Source of the DNA: Candidatus Poribacteria bacterium | GTDB lineage: Bacteria > Poribacteria > WGA-4E > JAJDTR01 | NCBI GenBank assembly: GCA_965222225.1 | Contig: CBDCTK010000002.1 | Span: forward strand, 2,304,001 to 2,368,000 | Length of the DNA stretch: 64,000 nt | Direction: 5' to 3' | In this document: piece by piece, positions 23,877-64,000 of the stretch | Position numbering within the stretch: position 1 is the first letter of the stretch | Layout: the number at the start of each line of letters is the position of its first letter | Translations under genes and position numbers: made by a program | The notes under the pieces: model-generated | What the model saw: the letters and a program-made list of their open reading frames with translations, nothing else | Databases searched by the model: none | Told to the model about the DNA's origin: nothing

Positions 23877-23898
23877 TCTTTACTCTACTCGTACATAT

Positions 23899-23924: not shown

Positions 23925-23949
23925 TTGAAAACGCCCGTCAGCAGGTTTG

Positions 23950-24032: not shown

Positions 24033-24155
24033 TGACGTTGCGCGGAGACAAGGCTTCTAACTCCGCTCCACACAAGATTCTTTACCCTGTCCACGTAATC
24101 ATTGTCATTGCACCTGAATTTTAGAGACGTGGTATAACAACAATGGAGAAACAGC

Positions 24156-40985: not shown

Positions 40986-41019
40986 TTTATCCTTTCTGAG
41001 CGACTAGGGAGATGAGCGA

Positions 41020-42877: not shown

Positions 42878-43270
42878 ACAGGCATATAGTAGCCAACAAT
42901 GTACGCATGAAGAAACTTTCTACATATCACCAATAATGGCTATACCACCGATTATTCAAAAAGGCTCTAACTTAGCGATTTCGCTGTTGGGAATAACAAT
43001 CGTCATTCCCGACTCCGCAGTATGAGATTATTGCCAATATGACCAATTCTTGCTTTCTGCGTAGGCTGGGCATCTTGCTCCACTCTACACAATTTTCTTT
43101 ACTTGACCCACGCAATCAATGCACTTGGATTTCCGACTCGCTATGTAGCAAGAACCAACCGGTCGAATCAAAAATGAACACATTACCGGCTTCGACTATC
43201 GTGATTCTCACGAATTATACAAACAACTTTGCCATATTCCAAATATAGTGTATAATCACATTGGTCGTTT

Positions 43271-44832: not shown

Positions 44833-45094
44833 CCAGATTGCAAGCAAGCCATTTTTTGTAATGGTCTGGTAACTGATAGTGGATTATCGATTCCGCTCGG
44901 CTTGGATTTCCAGGTCTTGGTTGATGACGCCGCTAATCTGCGGGAGCAATACGGCGCACAACCATCTCGTTGACTATGGCGTGTTGACATTTGACAAATT
45001 GAAGCCTTCTCTGATCCGAGATTTTTCGCCCTGATCCACGTCGAGACGATTCGGAACAATCGCAAATAATCAGCGTGTTACGTGACCTAATTTC

Positions 45095-45288
45095 GTAGGG
45101 GCGAGGTTACCTCGCCCCCATAGGGATCAAGTTAGGGGATTTCGTCTAGCATTGGAGAGGTAGACGGTCACAAAACCCTTAGCTAAGTCCGCATTGGGCG
45201 GGAAGGAAATCTCTATCGCACCCCATGCGGTAGGTGCGATCAACTGAGTGGATAGCGAAGGCGATAGAGATCCCTTTCCAACCGCACC
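45095..45288 (+). repeat. REP hairpins, one split by a full 37-nt unit
   Basis: GTAGGGGCGAGGTTACCTCGCCCC (45095); GTAGGTGC[unit 45238..45274]TTTCCAACCGCACC. Confidence 0.85.
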
Positions 45289-45459
45289 GAACCCTGTCCC
45301 TATGGAAACGAGCGCCATGAGTCATCTTCTGTGGAGGACTCATCAACAAATGGATGGTATTCCCTCGCCCTACAATTAGGAATCTGTCGGCGAATTTCAG
45401 ACACGCCTCAGACAAATGTCAACAGAACTCAATATGCAGATTTAAGGAGATGATACCCT

Positions 45460-46539: not shown

Positions 46540-46621
46540 TTACGCGCTGATGGAAGCCATAATCTTAATTTGAGAATCTCCGTAAACAGTGGATATCTAA
46601 ATTCAGGAGGACAACAGTGGC

Positions 46622-48142: not shown

Positions 48143-48161
48143 CCTTGGAAAGGAAGCTAAA

Positions 48162-49076
48162 ATGGCAAGTAGACCGATTCAAATCCTAATCGTAGCCACT
48201 CACCCGGCGGATTCGTTCGACATGGCGGGCGGCACATTGTCGCACCACGCCGCCCAAGGCGACAAGGTAACTGCTGTAATCGCCACCACAGGCGTGCGGT
48301 CGCATCACTGGGAGTTGGCGGAAAAGAAACGCATCGAAGGTGCGAGCCTTGATGTCGAGAAGTTCGTGGAGCAGGCAGCCGCGGAAAAGCTGGAGGAAGT
48401 ACGCAACGCCTGTCGAATCATGGGGTACGACGACGTACGCGATTTGGGGTTTGAAGATGACGACATTCTTGTGACCCAAGACAAGATTGAAGCCATCGCC
48501 GAAGTCATTCGCGAGGTACGGCCGGATATTTTAATCTCTCATCACCCCTACGAGAGCGGCGGGTTGAAAATGCACGGAACTATCGGACAAGCAACGATAT
48601 ACGCCTGGCAGGTTGCCGCCGGTACCGGACGGGGGCGGCAACTTCGCCACGCCGTGCCCTGCATCTACTTCATGAATCCGATGGCGTACATGGGCAACAA
48701 CAGCTTGGAATACGCCTCGACGGCACGCGCCGATCTTTATGTCGATATCACTGATGTCATTGACAAGAAGGTGAAGGCGCTCGACTACATCTCCAGCCAG
48801 TTTTACGGCGGACCCTATTCGCGCAAGCGTTCCGAGGCCGATGACGGCGCCCACGGACAAAAGGTGAATGTGGCATACGCCGAGCAATTCCAACGGTTCT
48901 TTCCACTGAGAAGTTACACCCTGCCGATCACCGACGCCGAGTTGGAACAGATTGACCAATCCCCCGAAGTCGGGATGGGGCGGCGCAGCGAGATAGTCGG
49001 CGCCTTTTCACCCCTACCGCCAAATATGGAGTTTTCGTCCAAATATCGCACGCCGAAAGAGAAGTACAACCTTTGA
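48162..49076 (+). CDS. PIG-L family deacetylase-like protein (paralog of 24156..25019)
   Basis: ATHPADSFD, REVRPDILISH, VDITDVIDKK and YAEQF motifs. Confidence 0.85.
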   Translation: MASRPIQILIVATHPADSFDMAGGTLSHHAAQGDKVTAVIATTGVRSHHWELAEKKRIEGASLDVEKFVEQAAAEKLEEVRNACRIMGYDDVRDLGFEDDDILVTQDKIEAIAEVIREVRPDILISHHPYESGGLKMHGTIGQATIYAWQVAAGTGRGRQLRHAVPCIYFMNPMAYMGNNSLEYASTARADLYVDITDVIDKKVKALDYISSQFYGGPYSRKRSEADDGAHGQKVNVAYAEQFQRFFPLRSYTLPITDAELEQIDQSPEVGMGRRSEIVGAFSPLPPNMEFSSKYRTPKEKYNL

Positions 49077-49142
49077 CATACCTACAAGAATAGTTGAGCA
49101 ACTTTCAATAATGAATTTTGCATTTTGACAATGGCCCCGGCT

Positions 49143-49212
49143 GCTCCTGCTGGATTGACAAATCCAGCAGATCTTTATCTAGCCACTTAGCTTCCATTCT
49201 TTTGCTTCGGAG
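49143..49212. repeat. ~70-bp repeat with hairpin, copy 2
   Basis: CTGCTGGATTGACAAATCCAGCAG hairpin; matches 25117..25186. Confidence 0.75.
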
Positions 49213-49316
49213 AGCATCTTCGATCGTTAAATCGAAAATGGGAATTGGTATATCTATAGTGCAGCGATGGGGTCAATATTCTGCTCCAGCAGATTAATGA
49301 TGAAAAGGGCATTACA

Positions 49317-51122
49317 ATGGAATTGCAAATCTCATTGGTAGCGGCTTTTGCGGCAATTCTGGTTTTCGGCTGCGTAGACGTCGCGCAGGGCAAGGGAGAG
49401 AACATATTTCCCAACCCGGGATTCGATGAGTTTGAAGGCGAGCTGCCCACCGGCTGGACGGTTGATATATGGAACAGGCCATTGTCAAGGGTGAAGATTA
49501 ACAGGCTAAAACCGGGGCGCGATGGCACCGGCCACTGCCTGGAGATAGTTCCAAGCACGCCGATGGCTAGTGTAACGCTGACGACCTAAGTAGTTCCCGT
49601 ATCAGCCAGCCAAGACTACCTTTTCAAGGGTTACTACGCGTCAGCCTGCGTGGGTGTAACCACGGACAAGAAGTGGATGGACGCAGACGGAGTCACGCTC
49701 ACCGGCAACTGGTTGGATGCCGATGAGAAAACTGTTTCATCATTCACCATCGTGCTCCCGGACACTCAGGATCGCTGGGTTGAGTGTTTCCAAGATGTAC
49801 ACTCCCCTGAGGGTGCAGCGGCGCTCCAGATAGTTATCAATCGGCGATGGGTGGGCGGACGTTTGCGTTTCGATGATTTCTCGCTCCGAGAGGGAAACAT
49901 CAGAGACTACGAGGAGGAGTTCTCTGTCCGGCAAGTGCCCGATGAAGACTTCTTTCCGATTTTCGGCTGGTTGACGCCCGGAACCCCTGCGCCGCACTTC
50001 TTGGGTGATAACGGTCCAAATACCGCGTTGGACTACTACCAGGCCGAATTCGCATTGGCGAATTTTACTATCAATCTCGAACTCAATGAATACAACGGTT
50101 TTGGGATGAAACACCGCCCCCTCGGACAACGGGAAGACGCAGAACTCATCGCGTTTGACAAAGATCCGAACGTGTGGTGGTTCGGCGGAGCCGACGAACC
50201 GAGCGAGAAGGAGTTCCCGCATCTGGCAGAGCAAAATGAACGGATTCAACGATTGGCGCCATCCAAGGACTTTTGGACGAATCTCTTTCCGAGCTACGCC
50301 GACGACTTTCGCGGCAAGCTGGAGAATTACGACCACCATGTCTCGGCGTACATAGATGTCGTAAAGCCAAAGATACTCACCTTCGATCACTACTGCATGG
50401 TCGGCAACGACCCGCGCGTCCATGCCGATAGCTGGTATAGCCCCAACCGTGAAGGGGATTACTTCCCCAACTTGGAGATCGTGCGGAAGCGCACGCTTGA
50501 AGCCGATGTCGAGTTCGGGGTCATCGTGTCGGTGGGCACATTCGGCCCCGTGCGGGGCGTCAGCGAAGCCGAACTGCGATTTCAAGCCTACACCTGCCTC
50601 GCATACGGCGCGCGCTCCCTCGGATGGTTCTGTTACTTGACCGAGATTGAGTACGGAAATTGGCAGAACTGGGAGGATATGGTCATCAACCGCGACGGCA
50701 CCCGGACGCGCCACTACTCCATGTTAAAGTATCTTAACGGCGAAGTGCTCGCCCTTGCCCCGACGCTGCTCCGACTCAAATCAACGGGGGCCTATCACAC
50801 CGACCCGTTACCGCCGATAGCCTACCCGCTCAAAGAATCGGAGCTGGTGGAATCCATCAGCGGCGGGATGGCATTGGTCGGTGAATTCAAGTCCGAGACG
50901 GATGGACGAATCTACATCATGGTGGTAAACCGAGACTTCATTGACCCCGCGACGTTGCAATTGAAGTTCCGCCGTCCCCCTCTAAACCTGTTGGAGGTGT
51001 CCAAACAGAACGGAAACAAGCAACCTGTGACGGGTTATTCTCCGGAGACAGGTGAGATGAAACTCGACCTTGCTGGTGGAGATGGCAGACTCTTCTACCT
51101 TGACGATCAACTGAGCGAATAG
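49317..51122 (+). pseudogene. Secreted CBM-like plus GH-like protein with an internal in-frame TAA
   Basis: ORFs 49317 and 49650 are in the same frame with a single TAA at 49587; signal peptide, NPGFDE, ADEP, FDHY. Confidence 0.75.
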
Positions 51123-51188
51123 CGACCGATCAAGTGACCGGATAGGGAACGCGATAGAATTCCCATTGCGAGGACGATAGAGTGCCCT
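51105..51188 (+). repeat. Stuttered 37-nt units overlapping the gene end
   Basis: Partial unit at 51105 encodes DQLSE*; full unit at 51128..51164. Confidence 0.8.
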
Positions 51189-51367
51189 CGCTGTTCGCTA
51201 CGGGGTCAGTCGAAACCGAAAATACTAGACCCGCGCGCTTGAAATTGGGATTCATGCGCTCAACCCAACTTGCAGGCTGGACCTTTGCAAAAATCGACCT
51301 TGATCGCCAAATCAAGATGGAATCCCTGTTTTCAAGAAAAAGCACTATTCCTTTAGATGAAAAACAT

Positions 51368-52495
51368 ATGAAAATAACCGATGTAAAAACCACGTTACTG
51401 CATATCCCGTCTCTCGGCGGAATCATGGATGCCACAATCCGCTATCCCGCAAAGGGAGCAACGGCGTGCTTTGTGCACATCGTGACCGACACCGGTCTTG
51501 AAGGTTTGAGTCCGGCTGGCGGCGGACGCGCCGCCCAAACCCTCCTTGAAGGATCCTTCAAGGAACTGCTAGTGGGCGAAAACCCGTTGCACATTGAGAA
51601 GCTATGGGACGATCTCTTCTGGTGTATCCGGGGCGTTGGCAGAAAAGGGCTGGCGTTTTGCGCGTTGTCCGCCGTAGATATTGCCCTGTGGGATCTGAAG
51701 GCGAAGCATTTCAACGTGCCGCTCTATCAGTTACTGGGTCCGTACACCGAGTCCGTACCCGTCTACGGCAGCGGTGGCTGGACGCACTTTGACCTTGACG
51801 AATTGGTAACCGAACAGACTCGTTATGTCGAGCGAGGCTTTAAAGCCGTGAAGATGAAAGTCGGCAAAGATTTCGGCAAAAGTGAGCGCGAAGACATTGA
51901 GCGACTGGCTGCCGTTCGGGACGCTGTCGGAGACGATATCGAAATCTACGTTGATGCCAACAACGGCTACTACGCGAAGCAGGCAATCTACATGGGGAAA
52001 GCCTTCGAGGAGTATCGCGTTGGCTGGTTCGAGGAACCTGTTTTAGCCGACGACATTGACGGGCTGGCTGCGGTGGCAAAGGCAATTGATATCCCCGTTG
52101 CGACTGGGGAGCACGAGTACACCAAATACGGCTTTAAGGACCTCATCGCTCGAGGGGGCGCGGACATTGTTCAACCCGACGTGGGGCGCGTGGGCGGCGT
52201 CACCGAATGGCTGAAGGTCGCCCATCTCGCGCACGCCTTCAATCTCCCCGTGGCGCCGCACGCCTATCAACTCATCCATCTGCACCTCGCCTGCGCCACG
52301 CCGAACCTCAAGGTGGTGGAGTACCTCGGAGTCTCCGAGGAAGCGGACAGGATTTACTATCAAGAATTTCCCGAACCCGATAACGGCATGTGGTCCCCTG
52401 ATCCCGACAAACCCGGATTGGGCTTGGAATTGGATCCGGTCGCTATAGAACAGTATGCGGTCGGCGCCGACGTTCCACGCGCGCAGTTGGGGTAA
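51368..52495 (+). CDS. Mandelate racemase/muconate lactonizing enzyme family protein
   Basis: DIALWDLKAK, KMKVG, DAN, EEP and GEHE motifs. Confidence 0.92.
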   Translation: MKITDVKTTLLHIPSLGGIMDATIRYPAKGATACFVHIVTDTGLEGLSPAGGGRAAQTLLEGSFKELLVGENPLHIEKLWDDLFWCIRGVGRKGLAFCALSAVDIALWDLKAKHFNVPLYQLLGPYTESVPVYGSGGWTHFDLDELVTEQTRYVERGFKAVKMKVGKDFGKSEREDIERLAAVRDAVGDDIEIYVDANNGYYAKQAIYMGKAFEEYRVGWFEEPVLADDIDGLAAVAKAIDIPVATGEHEYTKYGFKDLIARGGADIVQPDVGRVGGVTEWLKVAHLAHAFNLPVAPHAYQLIHLHLACATPNLKVVEYLGVSEEADRIYYQEFPEPDNGMWSPDPDKPGLGLELDPVAIEQYAVGADVPRAQLG

Positions 52496-52658
52496 GCAGT
52501 AACCTCTCCGCCGTATCCTCAGAGACTGACCAAATAACTCCCTTTACACTAGCTAGTCCACGCCTTGCTGGTACATTTATAGTCATTGCTACTGAGAATG
52601 ATACATATAGGAGTTATGCCCTACGGCTTGTAATAGCACAATCAATTGTGCGTCTTCT

Positions 52659-52760
52659 GTAGGAGCGATCAAACGACCGAATAGTGAGTGCGATAGCGAT
52701 TACTTGCCCCGCATTGGTAAAATTTGATTGACGCGATTAATGCACTGCAAATATAGAGAA
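52659..52760 (+). repeat. REP start + 37-nt unit + conserved tail
   Basis: GTAGGAGC[GATCAAACGACCGAATAGTGAGTGCGATAGCGATTAC]TTGCCCCGC...; compare the empty form at 54412. Confidence 0.8.
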
Positions 52761-52761
52761 T

Positions 52762-53136
52762 TTGATTGTTTACAGCTTAAAAAACACGGGTGATAGGCGA
52801 GCAATTCAAACCCTTATCGAACTCATAACACGCCCTGCTGATTTCAAAAAGAATTGGGCTTCCATGCAAGAGATGGCTGCACAAGTTCTATCGCGTTTTG
52901 CAATTCATAAGCACTATTCTAGTACCCTTTATTGCCGACGCAACACTGCGGAAGGAATCGCTATCCCTCCCGTAGAGCATCATCAAGTCAACCAGGGTGA
53001 TATAGAACAAATAATTGCAGCCGTGCGAAACGCCGGATACGACATTGATAAGCTAGAAAACTCTCTCACGGACTTGGAATTGTATAATTCCACTAACCCG
53101 GGGGAATTAAACACACAATACGGAAAAACCGAGTAA
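52762..53136 (+). other. Possible 5'-truncated gene fragment (HEAT-like start)
   Basis: Open for 124 codons, no RBS seen, begins at the repeat boundary; SLKNTGDRRAIQTLIEL. Confidence 0.35.
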
Positions 53137-53225
53137 GAGCCGAGATGTGTTCCCTAAATTCATGCTATCGGTAGCATTCTAATTATGCTAGTTATGCTTT
53201 GGGGAGAATCCTCGGTATTCTAACT

Positions 53226-54125
53226 CTAACTCGGCGGATAAATCAGATACCCCTTTCTCCCCGGCCGGGTGCGGAAAAGACAGCCGCCCGCCGTGACGTA
53301 AAGCGTCTGCAAATCCGGACCGCCGAACGTGCAGTTCGTCGGCTGGTCCGTCGGTACAGGGTGTGTTTCGAGAACGCGACCGCTAGGTGTGAAAACGTAT
53401 AGCATCGGTCCGGGCCCGCTCTCCTCCCAACCCGCGGTAGCGATGATATTCCCGTCACGGTCCCAGCACATGCCGTCAATCCCGCGATGCGGGTAGAAGT
53501 TGTGCAACACCTCGTATGCCCCCACCGATCCGTCGTCGTTGATAGGATACCGCCTCAATTCACGCGGATTGTTGTCGCCGTAAGCACTCTGCGCGACATA
53601 GAGCCACTTGCCATCCCGCGAAAACAGGAGGCCGTTCGGACTTGTCGTGTCATACGTAACACGGGTGATGTCCCATGAGTCGTCCGCGCGCGGATCCAAT
53701 CGGAACACCGATCGGTGGTCAAGCTCTAAATCGTCCGTTTCATCGCCATACCGCGGATCGGTGAACCACAACCTGCCCTGCGCATCGAAGGCGAGGTCAT
53801 TCGGACTGTTGAGACGCTTGCCTTCAAATTCTTCCGCGACGACTGTTGTCGTGCCGTCCGCATTGTAGCGTGAAATTCGTCGTCCGCCCTTTCCGTCGCT
53901 GAACAGTTTACTGCCTTCGCAGGCGTAGAGATTCCCATCCTTATCAAAAATCAACCCGTTCGCCTCGTTTGTGCCGGACCGAAACGCGGCGCATTCGCCG
54001 CTTGCCGGATCATAGCGCATCACGCGGCTGGTCGAAATATCCGTAAACAGCACGGCTTCCCCATCCCATGCCGGTCCTTCGGTGAAACCGTACGGTCCAG
54101 CGACCTGTTCAAACTCCCAACTCAT
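53226..54125 (-). CDS. SMP-30/gluconolactonase/LRE family protein
   Basis: TEGPAW, NSPNDL, FTDP, PNGL, DGM and PTNCTFGG motifs. Confidence 0.92.
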   Translation of the reverse strand: MSWEFEQVAGPYGFTEGPAWDGEAVLFTDISTSRVMRYDPASGECAAFRSGTNEANGLIFDKDGNLYACEGSKLFSDGKGGRRISRYNADGTTTVVAEEFEGKRLNSPNDLAFDAQGRLWFTDPRYGDETDDLELDHRSVFRLDPRADDSWDITRVTYDTTSPNGLLFSRDGKWLYVAQSAYGDNNPRELRRYPINDDGSVGAYEVLHNFYPHRGIDGMCWDRDGNIIATAGWEESGPGPMLYVFTPSGRVLETHPVPTDQPTNCTFGGPDLQTLYVTAGGCLFRTRPGRKGYLIYPPS

Positions 54126-54225
54126 AACTGTTACCTCCTACTCGCTTGTGGAATAATTCCAAATGTGATATAGTGCGTTGGCCATGAAATTGATACCCGA
54201 CGATAATATGGATTCAATTACTACA

Positions 54226-54483
54226 TTATACCATTTCGTTTGAATAAGTGTGCATAGGGTGAAATATTCACTTTGTTAGGACTTACGCTGATTGACTTCG
54301 TAGGTTGGGTTGAACGGAAATCCAAGAGAAATCGCGCACAGAGAGAAGACTTCCGATGTTTCATTCTGCCCGAAAGCGCAGGACATTCGAGTGAAACCCA
54401 ACACCTCATCTGTAGGAGCGATCTCCGAATCGCGACTTTAATTCACGCCATTGATGCACTTGCATTTTAGAGAAACGGTGTTA
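54226..54483. mobile_element. MITE-like composite: imperfect terminal inverted repeats enclosing two GTAG elements
   Basis: Left TTATACCATTTC...GTGCAT and right ATGCAC...GAAACGGTGTTA; internal GTAGGTTGGGTTGA...GTGAAACCCAAC (54300..54402) and GTAGGAGCGATCTCCGAATCGCGAC (54412). Confidence 0.55.
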
Positions 54484-54507
54484 CTACCATTCTAAAAGGA
54501 AAGGCGC

Positions 54508-55143
54508 ATGATTTTAGACCAGTTGGTTGTAAGTCCTTTTCAATCGAACTGCTGGATCTTCGGGTGCGACGAAACCCTTGAGGGTGTCGTGATTGATCCG
54601 GGCGATGAAGCCGAACGCATCCTGGAATCCGTCCAGAATTACGGCTTGACCATCAAATACCTCATTCATACGCATGGGCACCTCGACCATGTGGGCGCCA
54701 CCGCCGCCGTGCAACGCGAAACTGACGGCTTAACCCTCATACATGAAGCCGACCAAATCATGCTCGACAATCTGCCAGCTCAAGCAGCCCTGTTCGGAGG
54801 CGGCGACCCCGAAATCCCAGCCGTCGATCAGTACATCAAGGAAGGCGACCTCATCTCATTCGGGCGTTACGTCCTGTCCGTCATTGAAACCCCCGGTCAC
54901 AGCCCCGGAGGCATCTGCCTCAAGCTGGAAGGTAAGGAGCAAGGCGTTTTCGCCGGGGACACGCTCTTTAAGGGCAGTATCGGTCGAACGGATTTGTGGG
55001 GCGGCTCTTACGAGCAACTATTGGACTCAATCCGAGACCAACTCTTGCCGCTCGACGACGACACGCCAGTCTTCCCCGGTCACGGACCGCAGACAACAAT
55101 AGGCGCCGAAAAGCGAAATAACCCCTTCTTACATGGACTTTAA
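54508..55143 (+). CDS. MBL-fold metallo-hydrolase (glyoxalase II/YcbL-like)
   Basis: THGHLDH, TPGHSPG, GDTLF and PGHG motifs. Confidence 0.92.
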   Translation: MILDQLVVSPFQSNCWIFGCDETLEGVVIDPGDEAERILESVQNYGLTIKYLIHTHGHLDHVGATAAVQRETDGLTLIHEADQIMLDNLPAQAALFGGGDPEIPAVDQYIKEGDLISFGRYVLSVIETPGHSPGGICLKLEGKEQGVFAGDTLFKGSIGRTDLWGGSYEQLLDSIRDQLLPLDDDTPVFPGHGPQTTIGAEKRNNPFLHGL

Positions 55144-55201
55144 GCGCCCTTAGAGCATAATGTATACATTTTCAAAAGCGGTGTGTGGTCGAGAGGTCCC
55201 C

Positions 55202-55233
55202 AATCTTCCAACCTTCCGTCCTTCCAATCTTCC
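55202..55233. repeat. Four tandem octamers NNYCTTCC
   Basis: AATCTTCC AACCTTCC GTCCTTCC AATCTTCC between convergent genes. Confidence 0.6.
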
Positions 55234-55282
55234 TCAAAAGGTGTCTCCACGTTCAAACCGGGAGGGATGTAACACTCCGCGC

Positions 55283-56086
55283 TCATCGTGTCCCAGAGTG
55301 TTCCCTTATCTCCCATACCTCGCACCCTTGAAAACGCATGTGTACCTCCTCCACATACTTCGGTCGCGTGAGATAGCTATTCACACCCGGCACCGCCGCG
55401 CCGCGCAGCAGAAACGCACAAGAATTCGGTTGGCTGACGATGCGCGTGCTCGTCGGAATATACCGAATCGTCAAGCCGCCGCGCCGCTTGGATGACGTGT
55501 TCGCGTTCGATCCGTGTATGATGTTCGGGTGATGCACCGAGATATCTCCCGCCTTGAGCACAAAGTCGACAGCGCAGGATTCGTCGACCAGCTCCGGATC
55601 TATTCCCGAACTGAGTACATTGGGAATCTCGGTACGCGGTTTCATTTCATGCAGATCCAGTGTGTGCGTTCCCGGAATCACACGCATACACCCGTTTTCC
55701 GGCATCGAATCATCCACGGCGAGCCACAACGTCACAACCTCCATCGGCTCTAGGGGCCAATAACTGCCGTCTTGATGCCATAGTACCGGATGCCCATCGG
55801 ATGGCGGTTTGCAGATATAGTGCGAGGCAAATAGGGCGATATTCGGTCCGACGAAAATCTCCGCAATATCCAACAGTCGTTCGTCGCTGACGAGTCGCAC
55901 CCAAAACGGGTCGTCGACGACAAGCGGATGATGGTATTGCTCCGGTCGTAACTCCGGATTCTTCTCCTGCAGCCAGTCTAGGTGGCGGCTCGCCTCCTGG
56001 ACCAAGCCGGGGTCAAGCACATTCCGAAAAATTGCGTACCCATCCCGTTTGTATTTCTGAAGCACGTCGTCAGCACGATTCATCAT
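55283..56086 (-). CDS. PhyH family dioxygenase
   Basis: WHQD, ENGCMRVIPGTH and IIHGS motifs. Confidence 0.92.
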   Translation of the reverse strand: MMNRADDVLQKYKRDGYAIFRNVLDPGLVQEASRHLDWLQEKNPELRPEQYHHPLVVDDPFWVRLVSDERLLDIAEIFVGPNIALFASHYICKPPSDGHPVLWHQDGSYWPLEPMEVVTLWLAVDDSMPENGCMRVIPGTHTLDLHEMKPRTEIPNVLSSGIDPELVDESCAVDFVLKAGDISVHHPNIIHGSNANTSSKRRGGLTIRYIPTSTRIVSQPNSCAFLLRGAAVPGVNSYLTRPKYVEEVHMRFQGCEVWEIREHSGTR

Positions 56087-56150
56087 ATCTCCTACCAGAT
56101 AGCTCGATTGGAATCCTTTGAGAGGCATTCCTTGTCCATGGTAACCACTA

Positions 56151-58367
56151 TCACGGCAGCCACCAATACGTTATTTTCCCGATGATTGTCCAGTCGCGGA
56201 GATTGATGCCCTCCCCTTCAGTATCATAGGTCTGGTTGACGACCAAGTAGAAATCGCTCCCCGGACGATAGATATAGTTTATCAGGAGGTTGGCGGACAC
56301 AGCGTCTCCGTCACTGCTCCACTGCGCGAACAGCTTAGTAAAGAGCGTCGTCGAGAAGGAATAACTCACGCGTCCACCAAAAATGCTGGCATTGAACGCC
56401 TTCGATGGGAGACTAACGCGATTAAACTCAAGCAACGGCTGTATACTCAGCCGCGCATTCGGCTTGATGATTGCGTCCACGCCAATTCCGCGCCTCGTAC
56501 CGTGATAGAACTCCCCGAACTCTACGCGCAGTTCACCGAATACCTTACGACTGCTACTGCCGTAAATTGACCCTCGAAACCAAGTGAAGTTATAGTCTCC
56601 GCTTGGAATGACAGCGTCCTGAATTTGAAAAACTTCCGTCAGATGCTCCGTCGTATGCCTTGCTTGGAAACCTATCCAATCCCCGCTTTCAAGGTCGAAT
56701 TCGCTGTCAAGAACAAGCTCTCGTGTTTCCAGTTCATTGTCGCGATTCAACACAAGTTCAATCTCGGGACCGGTTTCAATCTGACGTATTCCGAATGCCT
56801 GCGGCCAAGGGGTATATTGCGCTTTACCACGAATATGGCGAACCCCTCTGCGCCGAACAAATCCAACTTCAGGATTGAACTCCCCTCCGATATCGGTATA
56901 TGAGCCATCCACTTGAAAACGATTGCTACGCCAGTCGCCCCCCAAATAAAAGGCGTCGTTCTGTTCGGATACCCCGTCATCAAGCGTGCGCGCCCAAAGT
57001 CCTCGGATATCTAGGTCTTTCCGCGGCCGATAGGAAAAATCAAACCCCGCCGTGCGATTGTAGGCATCGGCGCTTTGCTTATTGATGGCGATCACGCCGA
57101 TAGATGACCCGCTGAAGATGTCCCTCGTCAAGCGCAGCACGGAGTAATTTGTGCGGGGTTCCGCCACCTCTTCGTCCTGAAATTCATCCGTGAACACGTC
57201 AAGCACACCGACGCCGTAGGGGCCAACTTTTCCAGTTATCTTACCGCCCGCGACAATCGGGACCGCACGTTCTTGTGCCAGACCGATGCGACGGCTGTAG
57301 AAGAGAAGCAACGGCGGTGGCCTGTGGAAACTGGGGCGCGGAATACCGACATCAAAGATACCGGCGCCTTCTAGAAAGAAGGGGCGCTGCTCCGGGAAAA
57401 ACAGGTCGAAGCGAGTGAGATTGACCTGCTCTTCATCGGCTTCAACCTGCGCGAAGTCGGTGTTCAGCGTGAGGTCTGCCGTCAGATTTGACGTGATGCC
57501 GTACTTGAGGTCCAAACCTGCCTCAAACACCGCATTGGTCTGCGCCTCCTCTGCTTCGCGGCTGCTACCGGCTGAAACATAAGGGAGGATTTCCAGATTG
57601 CGTGAGGGGGAGATGCCCTCCAATCCCGTGAGACTGCCGAAGTAGGCGGTGCGATACTTTCCAAGGGGACCGTATGTCTTAGGCGCCGGATTCCATGCCC
57701 CTATCTCTTGGGTACGCGCAATCTCTCGACCGAAGTTTATCCCCCACGTCATCACATCGTTTTTCTCAAAGCGGAGTTGACTGAACGGTATGGCAATCTC
57801 CGTCGTCCAATTATCGGCATTGATTCTGCTGCGACACTCCCAAACGATATCCCAGTTGGTATTCCGGCTATCGCCGCTGTTCGACACCGCTGTGTCTTCC
57901 ATCCCACCCAATGGGTTGAAACGGAAGAAAACCGCATTGCGCCGATCGTTGTAGGTGTCCAATAGCAGAAAACCGTAGTCGTTGGACCGCAGTCCCTCGG
58001 AATCCCGGCGCATCTCGTTCGCAACTAGCTTCTCCATCTCCGCGTCGAAAAAGGTGAAACCGAAGTAAAGATTCTTCTCATCATAAAGAATCCGCACCTC
58101 GCTCGCCTGGGTCATAGGCACGCCTTGGTTCGGTTGTATCTGGAGCAACTCGCGAATCGGCTCTACATTTCGCCAAGCAGGCTCATCAAGATTCCCGTCG
58201 ACCTTGATGTTCTCAGAAATCCGGTGGGCAGAGAGGCGATGTTGCACCGGTTCCGCGGTCACAACGAGCGGAGCCAACGGCGTGCAAATCGATAGTATAA
58301 GCAGAAGATTTCCAACCCTCCAACTCAAGCGCGCCAGAGATTGGTTAGCAAGAAGAAAATGAGACAT
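56151..58367 (-). CDS. DUF5916-type protein (CBM9-like N-terminus plus probable outer-membrane barrel)
   Basis: VDGNLDEPAW, EIAIPFSQLRF, NTDFAQVEAD, FFPEQRPFFLEG and FYSRRIG motifs. Confidence 0.85.
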   Translation of the reverse strand: MSHFLLANQSLARLSWRVGNLLLILSICTPLAPLVVTAEPVQHRLSAHRISENIKVDGNLDEPAWRNVEPIRELLQIQPNQGVPMTQASEVRILYDEKNLYFGFTFFDAEMEKLVANEMRRDSEGLRSNDYGFLLLDTYNDRRNAVFFRFNPLGGMEDTAVSNSGDSRNTNWDIVWECRSRINADNWTTEIAIPFSQLRFEKNDVMTWGINFGREIARTQEIGAWNPAPKTYGPLGKYRTAYFGSLTGLEGISPSRNLEILPYVSAGSSREAEEAQTNAVFEAGLDLKYGITSNLTADLTLNTDFAQVEADEEQVNLTRFDLFFPEQRPFFLEGAGIFDVGIPRPSFHRPPPLLLFYSRRIGLAQERAVPIVAGGKITGKVGPYGVGVLDVFTDEFQDEEVAEPRTNYSVLRLTRDIFSGSSIGVIAINKQSADAYNRTAGFDFSYRPRKDLDIRGLWARTLDDGVSEQNDAFYLGGDWRSNRFQVDGSYTDIGGEFNPEVGFVRRRGVRHIRGKAQYTPWPQAFGIRQIETGPEIELVLNRDNELETRELVLDSEFDLESGDWIGFQARHTTEHLTEVFQIQDAVIPSGDYNFTWFRGSIYGSSSRKVFGELRVEFGEFYHGTRRGIGVDAIIKPNARLSIQPLLEFNRVSLPSKAFNASIFGGRVSYSFSTTLFTKLFAQWSSDGDAVSANLLINYIYRPGSDFYLVVNQTYDTEGEGINLRDWTIIGKITYWWLP

Positions 58368-58417
58368 GACGGAATCACTTTATTTTATTAGGACGGGGCA
58401 CCCTTGTGCAGATTACG

Positions 58418-58557
58418 GCATACGGAGTATGCCTACTACTGTTTTCCGATTCAGTTAAATTGGGGGTTGGGTTTCGCTAGGATCAAATGAGCGATTAGCG
58501 AATGCGATATAGATCTTAGGCGATAGAAAATGCCATTCGCTATCCGTTCGCTTGATC
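58418..58557. repeat. REP (- strand) and opposed 37-nt units
   Basis: GGCATACGGAGTATGCCTACTAC; GTTGGGTTTCGC; + unit at 58481..58517; - partial at 58533..58557. Confidence 0.75.
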
Positions 58558-58591
58558 AGCGCTAGTGCTTTCAAAGGCCACAGCGTCGAGC

Positions 58592-59431
58592 TTAGAACGA
58601 CAGACCGATCTCGCTCGCCACACCGGTTATATAACCCTTCGCCAAGTCATACTCTTCTTTCCCGGGCAGGTGCTCCATCATCAACGGCACATCCCCCGGC
58701 AGGCGATTCAACTCCGCGAGATAGGTGCGGTAGTCCAAGCTGCCCGTCCCCGGACGGCACTCCTGTATCTCCACCATGAAGGTCGGATACATCACGATAT
58801 CTTTGCCGTGGCAACTGACGATGGCGTCCCCAAGTTTCTCGAAACACTCCCGAATGACGCTAGTGTTGTTGAAAAATCGCCACGGCGAGGTGATGATGTT
58901 GACGGGATCCAGGTGCACCCGAAACGACGGACGATCAACCGCTTTGAGCAGAGCGACGTAGGAATCGGCGCTGTCCGGAAAAACCGAGGGCATCATCTCC
59001 AACAGAAAACTCGCACGCCTCGGTTTAGCCGTATCCAGAATCTGCCGGACAACCTCCACAATGAGATCGAAACACTCGTCCGTCAGATTCTTGGGGTGAG
59101 GAGCGGTTGACGAGGCTAGGTCGTATGTGCCGGAATAATTCACACAGCCCAGTGCACCGACTTCGTCCGCCACCGCAAGCCGTTCACAGACGGTGTCAAT
59201 CTGCGCACCCCGCTTTTCCAAATCGGGGGAAATCATATTTCCCCATGCGCCTCCGACTTCGGCAATCACGACTCCCTCTGCGCCAAAGGCGCGCTCAATC
59301 TCCCGCATGCGTGCCGGTTCTTGCGAGGTAACCCTCGGGCAATAGGCGGCGCGAAAACCTTCTGCCGTATGGGCTCTCGCTAACGCTGCCGGGTCATCGG
59401 TGTTAACGAAAACGGGTCCGCCAAGTCTCAT
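58592..59431 (-). CDS. Sugar phosphate isomerase/epimerase (xylose-isomerase-like TIM barrel)
   Basis: LEMM, HLDPVN, HGKD and MMEH motifs. Confidence 0.88.
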   Translation of the reverse strand: MRLGGPVFVNTDDPAALARAHTAEGFRAAYCPRVTSQEPARMREIERAFGAEGVVIAEVGGAWGNMISPDLEKRGAQIDTVCERLAVADEVGALGCVNYSGTYDLASSTAPHPKNLTDECFDLIVEVVRQILDTAKPRRASFLLEMMPSVFPDSADSYVALLKAVDRPSFRVHLDPVNIITSPWRFFNNTSVIRECFEKLGDAIVSCHGKDIVMYPTFMVEIQECRPGTGSLDYRTYLAELNRLPGDVPLMMEHLPGKEEYDLAKGYITGVASEIGLSF

Positions 59432-59738
59432 GATCCATCTCCCTTCAAGGTCGGGGCAAAATGATTGCAGTTCAGTGTAAAAAGATTGGATTTCTTCTGG
59501 ATCTTATCGTCATAATCTTGTATCCTTAATATGCCATTTTAGCACACACTCGACGAAACTGTAAACAGCCTTTTCCTAGCCTTGCTCGTTTGCATTTACC
59601 TAGTTCCGACGCTCGGTTTATCCCGTCAATCAAGGCATCACCGCACTGAAAAACGGTGCTTTCGTCTGTCGAGGCGTGCTTCCTTCAACCGAAACAGACC
59701 CGCTTCAGCACTGAAGCCCAAGGAACAACCCAAGTCCT

Positions 59739-61142
59739 ATGCGGACCGCGTCAACCGATACGCCCGAGTCAGAAATACAGAATAACGAGGAAAACAAACG
59801 CGAGCGCAATCGCAATTTTAGATTCGCCATGTTGCAAGGCACGTTCATGCGAATGAGTTTTACTTTGATTGATGCCGCGACAATCCTCCCCGCCTTTGTT
59901 TATACCCTCACTCAATCAAAGATTCTGGTCGGACTGACGGGATCGCTGCAGCCAGCCGGTTGGATGTGGCCTCAGCTCCTGATGTCGAATCTACTTGAGC
60001 ATCGTCCGCGGAAGATGAAATTCTACGCATTTGGAATGGCTGTCCGCATCACGATGTGGGTGGCTATCTGTCTCGCCGTAATCTTCATCGGCGCCCAACG
60101 ACCGGTGACGCTTGCCATCTGCTTCCTGATGTTCTATTTCATTGCCGCCTCGGCGATGGGCGTCTCGACAATTCCCTACATGGATATTATCTCAAAGGCG
60201 TTCGGCCCGCGGCTCAGAACACAATACTTCAGCCTTCGCCAACTCTACGGCGGTTTGTGCAGCGTCCTTCTCGGTTTCTTCATTCGAGCGGTGCTGGGCA
60301 AAGAATCGGAATTCATTGGCCCCTTTGGCGGCGTTACCCGGTTCTTTAAGTCACTCGTCAATTTCTTTGTTTTCTCGGTGTTGGGATTGAGCTCCGAGCT
60401 GTCGTTTCCTTACACCTATTGCACCCTGTTTGTCTGCGCAATCGTGACCTTCAGCTTGTCAGTGATGTTCTTTCTCAGAATCCGTGAACCTGTCGGACCC
60501 GTGCAAGCCTCGCGTCAGCCCATCAGGCAACACCTCAAACGCGGCCCCTATTTCCTGCGGATAGATGCGAATTATCGACGACTTCTGTTACTCCGGATCT
60601 GCCACCACTCCGCCGGAATGTCAGTTCCGTTCTATGTCCCGTTCGCCATGCAGAACCTTGGCATTTCAGAGGCAACAGTCGGCTCTTTCCTCATCACCAT
60701 GGCGCTCACCGGCGTGGTCTCAAACATCTGGTGAGCTCATGTCGCGAACCATTACGGCGTCAGATGGGTCTTGATAATGACCGCGGCAATCATGGCGCTG
60801 CCACCTCTGTTCGCGCTTCTGGTGCGATTCTTGCCGCTCGCTTGGCGGACGCCATGCTATTATCTGGTGTTCTCGGCAGAAGGGGCCTCCATAGGCGGCA
60901 TGTGGGTTGGTTTCATGGCATATCTGCTCAATATCGCTCCGCCATTGAGTCGCCCAACCTATCTCGGGTTTATGAATACCCTTCTGTTTCCGATGAGTTT
61001 CGCTCCTCTTCTTGGAGGTGTATTGGTAAACACTGTGAATTACGGCGGGTTGTTCCTCATGTCGATCGCCTGCGGCGTCCTGGCCCTTCTGGTCACAAGA
61101 CGACTGGACAACGACGTTTATGAGGATGAAGGCAGCATCTGA
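59739..61142 (+). pseudogene. MFS transporter with an internal in-frame TGA
   Basis: ORFs 59739 and 60771 are in the same frame with a single TGA at 60732; many TM helices; RPTYLG motif. Confidence 0.8.
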
Positions 61143-61276
61143 ACCAAGCCGCCCCTGCAGGAGAGGAACTTGGCTATCCTCGATTTTTTTCGATCTCACA
61201 ATTGAAGATAGAACCTTGAATCCCCAAATCTTATTAAATTAGTTCCTGCTGAGTGCGTACCGTCTACCATCTCCTT

Positions 61277-61490
61277 TGTAGGGTGGGCACTGCCCACCAT
61301 CGCCTTGTAAACGCCTTATTCCTATAGCCAAAATGTGACCATTTCTCGCACTCCAGCGGAAATCAAGCAAGTGAATAATGAACGATCGAGCGAACGAATA
61401 ACGAGTGATCAACTGACTGGATAAGGAAGGCGATAGCAATCCCATAGAGATCCCTCAAGCGAGGGAGTACCGAGTGCGATAGAGATTCTC
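61277..61490 (+). repeat. Intact REP followed by a chain of 37-nt units
   Basis: GTAGGGTGGGCACTGCCCACCA; units at ~61362, 61384 and 61407; CCCATAGAGATCCCTCAAGCGAG identical to 34171. Confidence 0.8.
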
Positions 61491-61957
61491 AATGTCTATA
61501 GCAAGAAATCACCTCTCTTTCCCGCTCCAGAGGAGCGGAATGTTATCATTTCCATGAAAGTTCAATATCATCTCAATAAGATGTGGAGAGCGGTAAACCC
61601 TTATCGGTAGGAAGTCAGCGCCTTGATGGTCACAGATTTTCTAGATTCAGGCGCAGTTGTCCCGTTCGGTAATTTGGTTTGACATGCCAATCGTCTTCAG
61701 GTATTCTTTTTCAAGGTAACGGGTGCGCAAACAAAGCAACGCGAAGGAGGCTATAAGTATGGGACAGCAGAAGCAAAAATCCCACGTCAGCTATTCCAAA
61801 GACGCCGTATTCAAGGATAGCCTTAACACGACCGCCAAGGATGGACAGCGTGCCGGGCCATGACGAATAACAGAGCAGGAAACCGTTCCAAATTTTGATA
61901 GGACGATTGACTGTCCGTTGACGGAATATCCCCGTTCTGTTTGAGGAGAAAACAACC

Positions 61958-62824
61958 ATGGCAAAGGAAGTCGTTGGTTTCATCGGTCTCGGCAATATGG
62001 GCAAGCCGATGGCGGACAATATTACCCGCGCCGGATACGAAATGGTGGTCTTCGACATCGCCGGGACAGCAGAACGCGCATCTGAAGGAGCGACGATTGC
62101 CGCGTCGGTGCACGACGTAGCAGAACAATCGACAACCGTCTTCCTAAGCCTCCCAACGCTTGTCGCCCATACCGAAGTCGCAACGGAGATTGCCGAAAGT
62201 AACGTACGCGAGGGGCTTGTTGTGGTTAATACATCAACGGTCGGAGCAAGAGTTGCCGCCGAAGCTCACCAACGGCTCAGTGAAAAAGGCGTCGGTTATG
62301 CTGACGCCCCCGTGTCCGGAGGCGCGTCCGGCGCACGGAAGGGCACCCTCACCGTCATCTTTTCCGGCGACGCAACGCTGTTCACGCGGTTACAGCCGTT
62401 ATTCGACATTATCGGCGCCAACAGTTTCAACGTTGGTAGCGAACCCGGTCAAGGGCAGCGGATGAAGATGGTGAACAATCACCTGGCAATCTCAGCCCTG
62501 CTTACCACGAGCGAAGCGTTGGCGTATGGAGAGACGGGCGGACTCGACATGAAAACCATGCTTGATATCCTAAACGTGTCTTCCGGACGGAGCTATACCA
62601 CCGAGCACATATTTCCGAACTTCGTCCTCACCGAAACTTACGACAGCGGCGGTCAGGCATCAATCATTCGGAAGGATATCGGGTTGTTTGTTCAAGAGTC
62701 AATAACAGATGGATGCCGCCATGGTCTGGCGAAAACGACGCTTGACCTCTTGGAGGCATTTGATGACGAGAACCCCGACAGCGACCAAACGGAGATTTAT
62801 CCCTATATTTGCCACAAAAAGTAG
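61958..62824 (+). CDS. NAD(P)-dependent oxidoreductase, 3-hydroxyisobutyrate dehydrogenase family
   Basis: GFIGLGNMG, DAPVSGG and KMVNN motifs. Confidence 0.92.
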   Translation: MAKEVVGFIGLGNMGKPMADNITRAGYEMVVFDIAGTAERASEGATIAASVHDVAEQSTTVFLSLPTLVAHTEVATEIAESNVREGLVVVNTSTVGARVAAEAHQRLSEKGVGYADAPVSGGASGARKGTLTVIFSGDATLFTRLQPLFDIIGANSFNVGSEPGQGQRMKMVNNHLAISALLTTSEALAYGETGGLDMKTMLDILNVSSGRSYTTEHIFPNFVLTETYDSGGQASIIRKDIGLFVQESITDGCRHGLAKTTLDLLEAFDDENPDSDQTEIYPYICHKK

Positions 62825-62826
62825 CT

Positions 62827-62965
62827 GTAGGGTGCGATCCACCGACTGATTAAGGAGGGCGATAGAAAGTCTTGATAGAGATCCTACCAGCCTCTAAAAG
62901 CCTAGGGTGGATCAAACGAGTGGATAACGATCAAGCGAACGAATAGTGAGTGCGATAGAAATCTC
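62827..62965 (+). repeat. REP filled with the unit, plus further units
   Basis: GTAGGGTGC[GATC...GAGATCCT]ACCAGCCT; more units at 62910 and 62929. Confidence 0.85.
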
Positions 62966-63053
62966 GCAGGCAATTGTTCCTCAAATGCAAAAATATGGCA
63001 TTGCCATCTATTTTTCAAACAAACTCTAAATAAACCTGATTCTCCAACCGAAA

Positions 63054-63842
63054 ATGAAACTAACGACAATGCAAACTAATTCATGGACGACCAAAGCCGT
63101 AATCGGTGTAGGTGTCCTCTCCATCTTCGTTGGCGGGGCACTAATCGTACGCCGTATCACCGCCTCCTCCGACGAATCGCCTCGCGTCGTTTATCAACTT
63201 CCCAAGACGAGGAACTCCGAACAGAGAAAGCAACTCCTCCAACGAATCACACGCGCACAGGTGAGGCGGGTGCCGAAAGCTGCCGCAACCCCTTCCGACG
63301 ATCGAAGTGAGAGCGAATTTAGCCAGAGCAATTCAGTCTCCGACCGGGATGAAACAGAGGAACGTTTTGACGCCATAGAATTCGAAGAATGGGCTGAAGA
63401 GGAACAGTACGAGGAGCTGACCGCTTATGACAAGATATACGACAATCTGTATAGCACCACCACGAGAATTCAATCGGTCATGAAGCAGATAGAACGCATT
63501 GATGAGGAAGTCGAACGAGTTTTCGGCGAGTGGAAACGCAACGTCCGTGATCCGAAAAATCTCACCGAGGAAGAGGAACGCACGATCGCGGAGGCAAAGG
63601 AGGAGATGGAGGCCATGTTTGAGGCACGTGAAGAATTAAACGAGAGCTTGGGCTCGTTCGTTGAAGATGTCGCGAGCGCTGTGCCGAGCGCGCTTCGCAC
63701 GCAATCCTATGGGGCCGAAAAACAGCGTCTAAGTTTCGATTACGGTCAGATTCGCTCGGCGCTTGGCGCCCCCCCGGAGCAACACAACACACAACTCTCC
63801 GAATTTTTCGCGTCATTCGAATATTGGAGCGTGTCAAAATAA
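63054..63842 (+). CDS. Membrane-anchored acidic coiled-coil hypothetical protein
   Basis: N-terminal TM helix, VVYQLP, E-rich helical C-terminus. Confidence 0.7.
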   Translation: MKLTTMQTNSWTTKAVIGVGVLSIFVGGALIVRRITASSDESPRVVYQLPKTRNSEQRKQLLQRITRAQVRRVPKAAATPSDDRSESEFSQSNSVSDRDETEERFDAIEFEEWAEEEQYEELTAYDKIYDNLYSTTTRIQSVMKQIERIDEEVERVFGEWKRNVRDPKNLTEEEERTIAEAKEEMEAMFEAREELNESLGSFVEDVASAVPSALRTQSYGAEKQRLSFDYGQIRSALGAPPEQHNTQLSEFFASFEYWSVSK

Positions 63843-63860
63843 CCCATGCACACCAAACCC

Positions 63861-63973
63861 GTAGGCGGGGATCAACCGAGCGGATAGCGAGGGCGATAGA
63901 GAGCCCCTTGCCCCGCATCTGATAGACTTGATTGACGCTATTTATACACTGCAAATATAGGGAAATGGTATAA
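63861..63973 (+). repeat. REP filled with a 37-nt unit + conserved tail
   Basis: GTAGGCGGG[unit 63870..63906]CTTGCCCCGC...GAAATGGTATAA. Confidence 0.85.
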
Positions 63974-64000
63974 ACAGCGAACAGGAATCGCCACTTCCCC

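Follow-up and report, generated by a model that had tools for sequence, protein, structure and literature searches.

The 64,000-nucleotide stretch of a Candidatus Poribacteria chromosome analysed here (the window, G000:C2:2304001-2368000, from a 5.70-Mb genome in two contigs) contains many repetitive extragenic palindromic (REP) sequences, and lodged inside several of them is a 37-nt unit that looks like an undescribed, extremely small mobile element. We think it probable that this unit is a non-autonomous micro-element of the single-strand-DNA kind, with hairpin repeats and its own copies as targets. It was found within REP hairpins that begin with GTAG, in a further hairpin that does not, and inside other copies of itself, and several of the REPs that it occupies are empty at the orthologous position in sister species. 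Literature searches of paper texts returned no description of such a unit, and its 12-mer GCGATAGAGATC was absent from the texts searched; searches linking Poribacteria with 'repetitive extragenic palindromic' gave nothing relevant.

Words of the unit were the most frequent 8-, 10- and 12-mers of the chromosome (GCGATAGA, 1137 occurrences; GCGATAGAGATC, 283 occurrences). A strict regular expression without any pairing requirement returned 499 copies, of which 469 were exactly 37 nt long, and unit arrays with at least one hairpin core numbered 790 genome-wide, covering 45 kb, with a recognisable head in 729. Each unit comprises GATCAA, then a small hairpin, then the tail GCGATAGAGATCCC, in the layout GATCAA-NN-GA-NN-G-RATA-NN-GA-NN-G-CGATAG-(A/N)3-ATCCC, and the GATCAA start was kept, per position, in 455-469 of the 469 copies. 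GATC itself occurs genome-wide at 43% of expectation (19093 versus about 44500 sites), with two GATC sites per unit, and the highly iterated palindrome HIP1 (GCGATCGC) showed no genome-wide enrichment (117 copies).

In the hairpin, two variable 2-bp helices flank a conserved tandem G.A/A.G mismatch and the loop is GRATA; positions 2-4 (ATC) are able to pair with 26-28 (GAT), which lengthens the structure. The variable pairs 7:23, 8:22, 11:19 and 12:18 were standard in 452, 454, 462 and 463 of the 469 copies, respectively, each of them occurring as three or four pair types, and 109 stem combinations were counted in total, with G9A10 always opposite G20A21. The neighbours of these GA steps were mostly a pyrimidine on the 5′ side and a purine on the 3′ side, a context that favours sheared tandem G.A pairs. 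G.T wobbles far exceeded A.C mismatches in the stems (187 versus 13), indicating that the GATCAA strand is the one that folds. The pairing also held between species: among 69 non-identical units of a five-genome set, 97.1% of cells paired (76.8 ± 1.2 in shuffles) and two-sided changes occurred in 130 cells (39.5 in shuffles), with neither value attained in any of 500 shuffles and slid controls pairing at 23-50%. Rfam returned 0 matches at the gathering score across the whole window and a single chance-level snoRNA match (E 0.039) on 62700-64000.

Three other descriptions of the unit were tried and rejected. It is not itself a GTAG-tagged REP, as no GTAG/CGTC tag stands at the foot of its hairpin and the GTAG belongs to the flank. 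Nor is it a miniature inverted-repeat transposable element, its ends (GATCAA... and ...GATCCC) sharing GATC only, with no terminal inverted repeats and no target duplication at aligned junctions. Guide-like pairing of the variable stem bases with the flanks gave a mutual information of at most 0.12 bit, which is explained by composite copies.

The host sites are GTAG REPs, the consensus forms of REP1-REP7 having GTAG directly 5′ of a 6-9 bp (near-)perfect stem with a short loop. These high-copy intergenic REPs amount to 264 empty copies over six anchor-defined types, and their words GTAGGAGCGATC and GTAGGGTGCGCA occur 143 and 129 times in the genome. Empty copies within the window include REP1 GTAGGGTGCGCACCGCGCACCAGCCT at 23899-23924 (+ strand; 7-bp hairpin, -8.8 kcal/mol, z -3.1) and again at 93-118 (- strand; 0 expected by chance), REP2 GTAGGAGCGATCTCCGAATCGCGAC at 54412-54436 (+; 38 identical genome copies) and REP4 GTAGGGTGGGCACTGCCCACCA at 61278-61299 (+), whose ortholog in genome G002 has an extra filled REP1 just upstream.

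When REP lengths were scored between 5′ and 3′ anchors in six REP types, empty and filled forms fell into separate classes: 24 nt (85 copies) and 58-59 nt (31 copies) for REP1, 25 nt (60) and 60 nt (4) for REP2, 23 nt (GTAGGCGGGGCATCTTGCCCCGC, 14) and 56 nt (12) for REP3, 22 nt (78) and 56 nt (7) for REP4, and 24 nt (8) and 59 nt (3) for REP5. REP6 was less clear: 15 copies were empty, and 6 of the long forms carried a unit. The six types together gave 107 long forms with unit signatures and 264 empty ones. As REPs gain 33-35 nt for a unit of 36-37 nt, 1-4 REP bases are replaced; in REP3, for example, GTAGGCGGGG-CAT-CTTGCCCCGC reads GTAGGCGGGG-ATCAA...ATCCC-CTTGCCCCGC when filled, without duplication. 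An earlier note on this stretch, made from its letters, had seen no target duplication, and we likewise found none at aligned junctions, 1-4 nt of the REP being replaced instead. As for the REP6 type, 43 of its 49 long forms genome-wide lacked unit signatures, so that another insert family may use REP6; at 54300-54411 in the window a long REP6-type hairpin (GTAGGTTGGGTT...AACCCAAC) encloses ~100 nt that are not unit-like.

Genome-wide, GTAG stood 4-14 nt upstream in 252 of the 729 arrays and at 16 nt in 41 more (293 total), with offset peaks at 9 (112 arrays), 8 (47), 16 (41) and 4 (32). Among control GATC sites, GTAG lay at 4-14 nt in 1025 of 32355 (3.2%), many of these being GATC within REP2 itself, and the count of GTAG-to-GATC distances that the note had called for thus came out in favour of placement within REPs. 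In 416 arrays (57%) no GTAG stood within 30 nt. Entry usually falls 8-9 nt after the first G of GTAG, 4-6 nt in some REP types, and 16 nt away both in REP6 and at a second site of REP1, which lies in the 3′ arm; since the offset varies with REP type, there is no single fixed distance from GTAG. Distinct GTAG-plus-arm contexts upstream of arrays numbered 72, and a cognate 3′ arm (at least 5 nt) followed the array in 78 of 239 cases versus about 28 with permuted partners. CTAC downstream of arrays had no peak, from which the orientation of the unit relative to GTAG is fixed. The note's placement of the unit, as an entity of its own, in the hairpins of several GTAG REP types is borne out.

GTAG is not required for unit placement. 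Units had G at -3 (60%) and C or G at -2 (88%) in their left flank, and the corresponding values for arrays without GTAG were 51% and 84%; among the non-GTAG sites, one that recurs often lies in the second hairpin behind REP1, in its 3′ arm, with the flank ...CCCCAGNGNGG|GATC. Two simple cutting schemes were rejected. Cutting and ligating at GATC sites does not suit empty REP1, REP3 and REP4, which have no GATC, or the REP2 junction, and a single fixed cut at GTAG+10 is contradicted by REP6, by the second REP1 site (offset 16), by the non-GTAG hairpin and by 2/3 of the self-insertion sites.

All the sites named in the earlier note, whether filled, partial or empty, lie where it had placed them. 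At 62827-62835 (+) stands the REP1-type palindrome 5′ half GTAGGGTGC, whose 9 nt match those of the empty REP1 at 23899 and 118. Next come a 50-nt unit in which the tail is duplicated (62836-62885, +; GATCCA-hairpin-GCGATAGAAAGTCTT + GATAGAGATCCT, the stem pairs CC/GG and CT/AG lying around GA/GA) and then the REP1 3′ remainder ACCAGCCT (62886-62893, +), with nine REP bases (GCACCGCGC) missing relative to the empty copy. A second array, comprising half a unit (positions 1-19) and then a full one, occupies 62910-62965 (+) after the ...AAAAGCCTAGGGTG piece behind REP1, an example of the site with the ...CCCCAGNGNGG|GATC flank that is common across the genome. The filled REP3 at 63861-63916 (+) consists of GTAGGCGGG (63861-63869), a 37-nt unit (63870-63906) and CTTGCCCCGC (63907-63916), and the filled REP7 at 45230-45288 (+) of GTAGGTGC (45230-45237), a 37-nt unit (45238-45274) and TTTCCAACCGCACC (45275-45288). 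The fill at 52659-52712 (+) is chimeric, its unit (52667-52703) being enclosed by the REP2 5′ half GTAGGAGC and a REP3-type 3′ half, (C)TTGCCCCGC. GTAGGA with a partial unit (GATCAAGTGAGCGAATA...) at 40778-40818 (+) lies directly upstream of an empty REP4 at 40819-40840, and GTAGGCGGG with a degenerate GATC... remnant was found at 40954-40990 (+). The pattern GTAG-N2-5-GATCNANNGA occurred six times in the window versus 0.11 expected, a number attained in none of 100 shuffles, and five of these are sites of the note. Two further arrays lie at 10826-10884 (+; a 12-nt head fragment and a full unit, with the REP3 3′ half CTTGCCCCGC at the end and no intact GTAG 5′) and at 42806-42880 (+), the latter nested, with outer unit positions 1-12, a full inner unit and outer positions 15-37 (...CCCCTAGTGAGTGCGATAGGGATTCC).

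The locus was present in nine same-genus genomes, and the syntenic 80 kb were taken from five of them, four of the five regions being collinear with the window at ~85% identity in genes; the genomes set side by side at orthologous sites belong to different species, whose coding DNA is about 85% identical. Among these sister species, eight or more orthologous REPs were empty in one genome and filled in another. At 45230 (site A) the window's genome, G000, reads GTAGGTGCG[ATCAAC...GATCCC]TTTCCAACCGCACC, G003 has the empty GTAGGTGCGGTTTCCAACCGCACC and G002 a close variant of it, all with conserved flanks. In the gap at 10821 (site C, with the array at 10826-10884) REP7 is empty in G001 and G009 and filled in G003 and G002 from the same base onward. 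Behind the stop codon that precedes 62827, G002 has a decayed empty REP, and G001, G004, G006 and G009 hold different arrays in the same GTAGxGTGG hairpin, that of G006 comprising two units between both retained REP4 arms. Two further sites were read by eye: gap 51106, with an empty REP3 in G003 and one filled behind a REP2-type 5′ half in G009 (a chimera as at 52659), and gap 55143.

An automated census was based on unique left flanks, at least 40 nt long, that lead into GTAG. Of 140 directed comparisons it retained 134, which were divided into 12 filled-filled, four filled-to-empty, four empty-to-filled and 26 empty-empty, the rest having no clear REP or GTAG opposite. Three of the four filled-to-empty pairs were additional to the sites read by eye; one example sets G001 GTAGGCGGG[37 nt]CTTGCCCCGC against G003 GTAGGCGGGGCATCTTGCCCCGC. 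Empty alleles at orthologous sites, which the earlier note had asked after, were therefore found in sister species by the alignments of sites A and C and by the census. Since the empty alleles match the canonical high-copy consensus, including the bases replaced in fills, insertion is the simpler reading.

Units also enter units. With arrays parsed against the 37 unit positions by a Viterbi model, we found 162 triples of an outer 5′ part, a near-full inner unit and an outer 3′ part, in which the outer halves were contiguous to within 0-3 positions in 121 cases versus 57 in shuffled arrays; where the split fell inside the hairpin, the outer halves paired in 110 of 123 cells versus 68% when permuted. 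These matching outer halves indicate that most of the stutter in the arrays is units within units, and some 11-nt tail duplications are not accounted for by nesting. Self-entry was preferred behind unit position 24 (66 cases), behind 20-21 and behind 12-13; each time, the first bases of the newer unit overlap a G, GA or GAT supplied by the older one. A strict regular expression for loop-split units was uninformative, its 7 matches all belonging to one composite. REPs also occur inside unit tails, e.g. GCGATAG|CTATATGTAGGGTGCGCAC..., and as REP1 stands there with its usual CTATAT leader directly behind the GCGATAG of a truncated tail, REPs appear to land in units too. The REP-targeting process put forward in the note is thus right in that the unit lands in REPs, but incomplete in that it also lands in a non-GTAG hairpin and in itself, at three preferred positions.

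The same data bear on the suggestion of a 'writer', an enzyme that would nick the REP and make the unit on one fixed template, repeated copying giving the stutter. Such an enzyme would fit the ~12-nt sub-repeats of the unit, the partial heads and tails in arrays and the missing target duplication. On indirect evidence we nevertheless regard it as highly improbable, because 109 paired stem combinations in 469 copies are incompatible with one template and 75% of the partial head/tail pairs are the halves of an older unit split by a newer one; the note's notion of 'writing in' gives way to the copying of existing units, which fits better.

How far units travel with their REPs can be judged from the stem combinations. 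Independent fills were diverse in REP2 (16 combinations in 19), in REP4 (9 in 9) and in arrays directly after GTAG (19 in 23). In REP1, a single combination was common to 22 of the 37 fills, and to 8 of 18 in the offset-16 class, which indicates that this REP1+unit composite spread after filling; same-combination pairs within REP type numbered 302 versus 72 ± 11 expected. The unit moves both alone and together with its REP, and the chimeric flanks at 52659 and in G009 fit recombination between units.

Some of this might be expected if the unit were a long-loop variant of one REP family, confined to REP composites in its spread and passed from one REP to another at stalled hairpins through short-homology recombination or template switching. 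The combination shared by 22/37 REP1 fills, the excess of same-combination pairs, the REP2/REP3 chimeric flanks in the window and G009 and the 1-3 nt overlap with the target at both junctions all accord with such a variant, and PMC3733652 reports, for GTAG-14 of Bradyrhizobium, REP loops that are self-complementary over up to 27 bp. Short and long self-complementary loops also coexist in the long-loop REPs set out there (GTAG-14 Bradyrhizobium, GTAG-3 E. coli; Di Nocera et al. 2013, PMC3733652), but those loops are family-specific, whereas the unit is common to many REP families, occurs outside REPs and is self-nested. We consider a loop variant unlikely, given that the unit occupies at least seven REP families with unrelated arms, 72 GTAG contexts and 416 arrays without GTAG, that its ends are sharp everywhere (positions 1-4 and 35-37), that REP2 and REP4 fills nearly all differ in stem combination, and that homologous exchange would have little to work with in arms of 5-9 nt. 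Were the unit only a loop variant, it would be a curiosity of one lineage.

A strict 30-nt pattern run on 121 genomes of the phylum, for which a reversed control pattern gave 0 everywhere, showed that the unit is restricted to two genera. It was present in 8/8 genomes of genus g1 (317-845 copies per genome) and in 4/4 genomes of g4, which belongs to another family (116-134 copies per genome). Elsewhere the pattern gave 2 copies in the one g2 genome searched, 1 copy in the one g12 genome searched, 1 copy in 1/14 genomes of g6 and 0 copies in the 82 genomes of family f2. The g4 unit is 34 nt long, with the tail GCGATAGTCTT instead of GCGATAGAGATCCC (L016-L019, L054, L055), and GTAG-N4-5-GATCAA occurs 7-24 times per g4 genome versus 290 in G001. 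In G000 the form ...GCGATAGTCTTGTAG|GATCAA joins a g4-type tail directly to GTAG and the next unit.

Orientation depended on the DNA strand. Units were distributed +:- as 71:153 where GC skew is positive and as 170:69 where it is negative (Fisher p 1e-17), or 59:122 and 127:58, respectively, after declustering; the bias was equal for GTAG-adjacent arrays and arrays without GTAG, and empty REP1, REP4 and REP2 were biased in the same direction. Relative to genes (crude open reading frame (ORF) calls; 4307 ORFs, 81% coding), units were co-oriented with both neighbours in 171 cases and anti-oriented in 144, and with these calls convergent gaps had no excess of units. The bias follows GC skew and not gene direction, which points to a DNA-strand process tied to replication rather than to transcription.

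This result bears on whether the unit could instead be a host-selected motif, such as protein-binding DNA or an RNA hairpin serving, e.g., nucleoid organisation, mRNA stability or REP silencing. Its strongly conserved constant positions and ~97% pairing over five species would be consistent with selection, as would its two GATC sites in a genome holding GATC at 43% of expectation and its persistence in two genera. Against this stand the lack of preference for gene direction (171 versus 144) or convergent gaps, the variation of orthologous sites between species in unit presence, number and sequence, the self-nesting, the 0/82 genomes of family f2, the absence of an Rfam match, and the fact that filled REPs still amplify and flank RAYT genes. 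A host motif seems to us improbable.

On the reading that we prefer, the unit would be a non-coding micro-element in its own right, 37 nt long (34 nt in the second genus), and copies of existing units would be placed into single-stranded, hairpin-forming DNA, namely GTAG REPs of at least seven families, the second hairpin beside REP1 and earlier unit copies. A new copy would follow a G, overlap the target by the 1-3 bases at its start (G, GA or GAT) and replace 1-4 target bases in fixed orientation without target duplication. Filled REPs would then spread as composites, and recombination among units would give rise to chimeric flanks. The unit may move as single-stranded DNA at the replication fork, with a hairpin-recognising nuclease acting in trans; if we had to guess, a Y1 HUH enzyme of the RAYT or IS200-IS605 kind is the most obvious candidate for mobilising it.

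Five Y1_Tnp (PF01797) hits were present in the genome. One, L001 (1384-1857, -), is an intact 157-aa RAYT with unit-bearing REP1-composite pieces on both sides, inverted; a second, L002, lies at 1123-1893 (-). REP2 stands on either side of L003, a pseudogene, and a GTAGGCACACGCCGTGTGCC-type GTAG REP does so for L004. At L005:1379-1750 (G000:C2:3560203-3560574) a 73-aa C-terminal RAYT-like fragment, its N-terminal part gone, lies exactly between inverted units, and G027 has a RAYT with REP3 copies, filled and empty, beside it. The idea in the earlier note that filling disarms REPs finds no support, since filled REPs flank RAYT genes (G000, G027), many fills keep both arms and the filled REP1 composite has spread. 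A parent element sharing the ends of the unit was also sought. A candidate 1045-bp insertion sequence (IS), in which GGCGATAGA occurs by chance, was rejected because its inverted repeats and 5-bp duplications are its own, and no other parent turned up in a search that was not exhaustive. This IS (G000:C2:697730-698773, 1044-1045 bp) has at least 23 further copies at 99.6-100% identity, with terminal inverted repeats TAGGAGTTACGCAGTTG... and one 339-aa ORF, and its 5-bp target duplications lie in AT-rich DNA.

A more specific proposal, which we hold to be possible but doubtful, makes the unit a hyperparasite living on the REP/RAYT system, a 37-nt single-stranded DNA hairpin that borrows a resident HUH (RAYT-type) nuclease and enters after G in exposed hairpins of one replication strand, REPs and itself included. 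If so, it would be among the smallest self-propagating DNA elements known, and the hundreds of insertions, nested and dated, would preserve a record from nature of in vivo integration by these enzymes.

Several observations count against a mobile element of the kind we favour, and some of them concern the enzyme. The REP1-linked RAYT L001 also occurs in unit-free genomes (g6, 7/7; g3, 5/10) and was not found in 2/4 unit-bearing g4 genomes; a second Y1 protein (257 aa) is sporadic. At least two Y1_Tnp hits were present in every unit-bearing genome tested (including four of g4), but in a unit-free genome too. Neither profiled Y1 protein (Y1a, Y1b) co-distributes with the unit, and the profiling of these two proteins across genomes tied no mobilising enzyme to it. 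According to PMC8266576, RAYTs cut C|T or C|A outside the hairpin, with GTAG acting as guide for cutting 5′ or 3′ of the REP; the junctions of the unit lie within the hairpin and read G|A and C|N. The loss of 1-4 target bases is also unlike classical IS200/IS605 insertion.

Others concern the fold, the strand and the direction of change. The hairpin is thermodynamically marginal in nearest-neighbour models (z about 0 for the unit alone, with DNA and RNA parameters), which give the tandem G.A motif no credit; the RNA-parameter minimum free energy structure matched the covariation structure in 2/3 sense-strand units, and the hairpin probably needs a partner for stability. The sense strand of the unit lies mostly on the C-rich strand, and IS608 top strands have the opposite preference (lagging-strand template). 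Moreover, the GC skew of G000:C2 flips sign many times along the 5.6-Mb contig, without two replichores, a patchiness that could reflect rearrangements or assembly joins and that limits a leading/lagging reading of the bias. Insertion or loss at the orthologous sites is a direction that these alignments, having no outgroup, leave unrooted. Strain-level polymorphism was unseen, public contigs breaking at these repeats: Logan contigs of four (X9, X11, X1 and X2) of the 12 runs holding the stretch end, on 44001-64000, inside repeats, e.g. at 62930-63879, and as the contig joints are repeat cross-matches, the public runs are no evidence either way.

Among the closest known systems are REPs themselves. 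The unit is hosted by classic GTAG REPs, and RAYT genes with inverted REPs are present, as in the GTAG superfamily and in bacterial interspersed mosaic elements (BIMEs) and REP doublets forming hairpins (REPINs), the latter proposed as the replicative unit of REPs (PMC3116915; the superfamily in PMC3733652 and PMC8266576). Like REPs, the unit measures tens of bases, forms a hairpin, is intergenic, has hundreds of copies and shows stem covariation and strand bias. It differs in its GATCAA foot and obligatory tandem G.A mismatch, in sitting within other REPs and itself, in junctions that are not the C|T or C|A of RAYTs, and in that no profiled RAYT co-distributes with it. ISs of five families (e.g. 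IS1397, ISKpn1, IS621 and ISRm22) target REPs (Tobes and Pareja 2006, PMC1525189). These have a defined entry point in REP palindromes and use REPs as landing pads, as the unit does, but are ~1-1.5 kb long and encode a transposase, whereas the unit is 37 nt, non-coding and self-nesting and leaves no direct repeats.

Behaviour alone links the unit with IS200/IS605 elements and their miniature derivatives, which cause no target duplication, keep a fixed orientation to a short target and recognise hairpins (PMC8266576). Unlike these, the unit has one hairpin instead of two subterminal ones and a preceding G/GS in place of a conserved tetra- or pentanucleotide target next to the left end, replaces 1-4 target bases, and has no full-length parent in our non-exhaustive search. 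Like the unit, IS200/IS605 elements also show a replication-strand bias. The nearest analogue in size and nesting may be the small dispersed repeats (SDR) of heterocystous cyanobacteria, which Elhai and colleagues are said to have described in 2008 as ~21-27-nt mobile repeats lying in other repeats and in each other; their sequence, size and host phylum differ from those of the unit.

How REPs and very small repeats spread is still open, as RAYTs cut and join REP DNA in vitro and integration in the cell has not been pinned down. The unit has sharp ends, a hairpin of a size suited to recognition by a protein, and hundreds of insertions, and the empty sites that can be reconstructed in REPs and in the unit make the junction rules testable with purified enzymes. 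REPs here act as landing pads for another non-coding repeat and not just for full insertion sequences, and insertion of the unit accounts for much of the unalignable intergenic DNA between Poribacteria species.

Two features of the window lie apart from the unit. Coding DNA at 36262-36572 and 37206-37744 contains 132-nt tandem repeats (2.4 and 4.1 copies, respectively, with 66-73% matches). At the gap 23876-24134, the relatives G009, G001 and G003 (loci L034-L045) have ~600 nt extra with two small ORFs that are absent from G000 and that, by eye, resemble what we take to be a HicB/HicA-type antitoxin-toxin pair.

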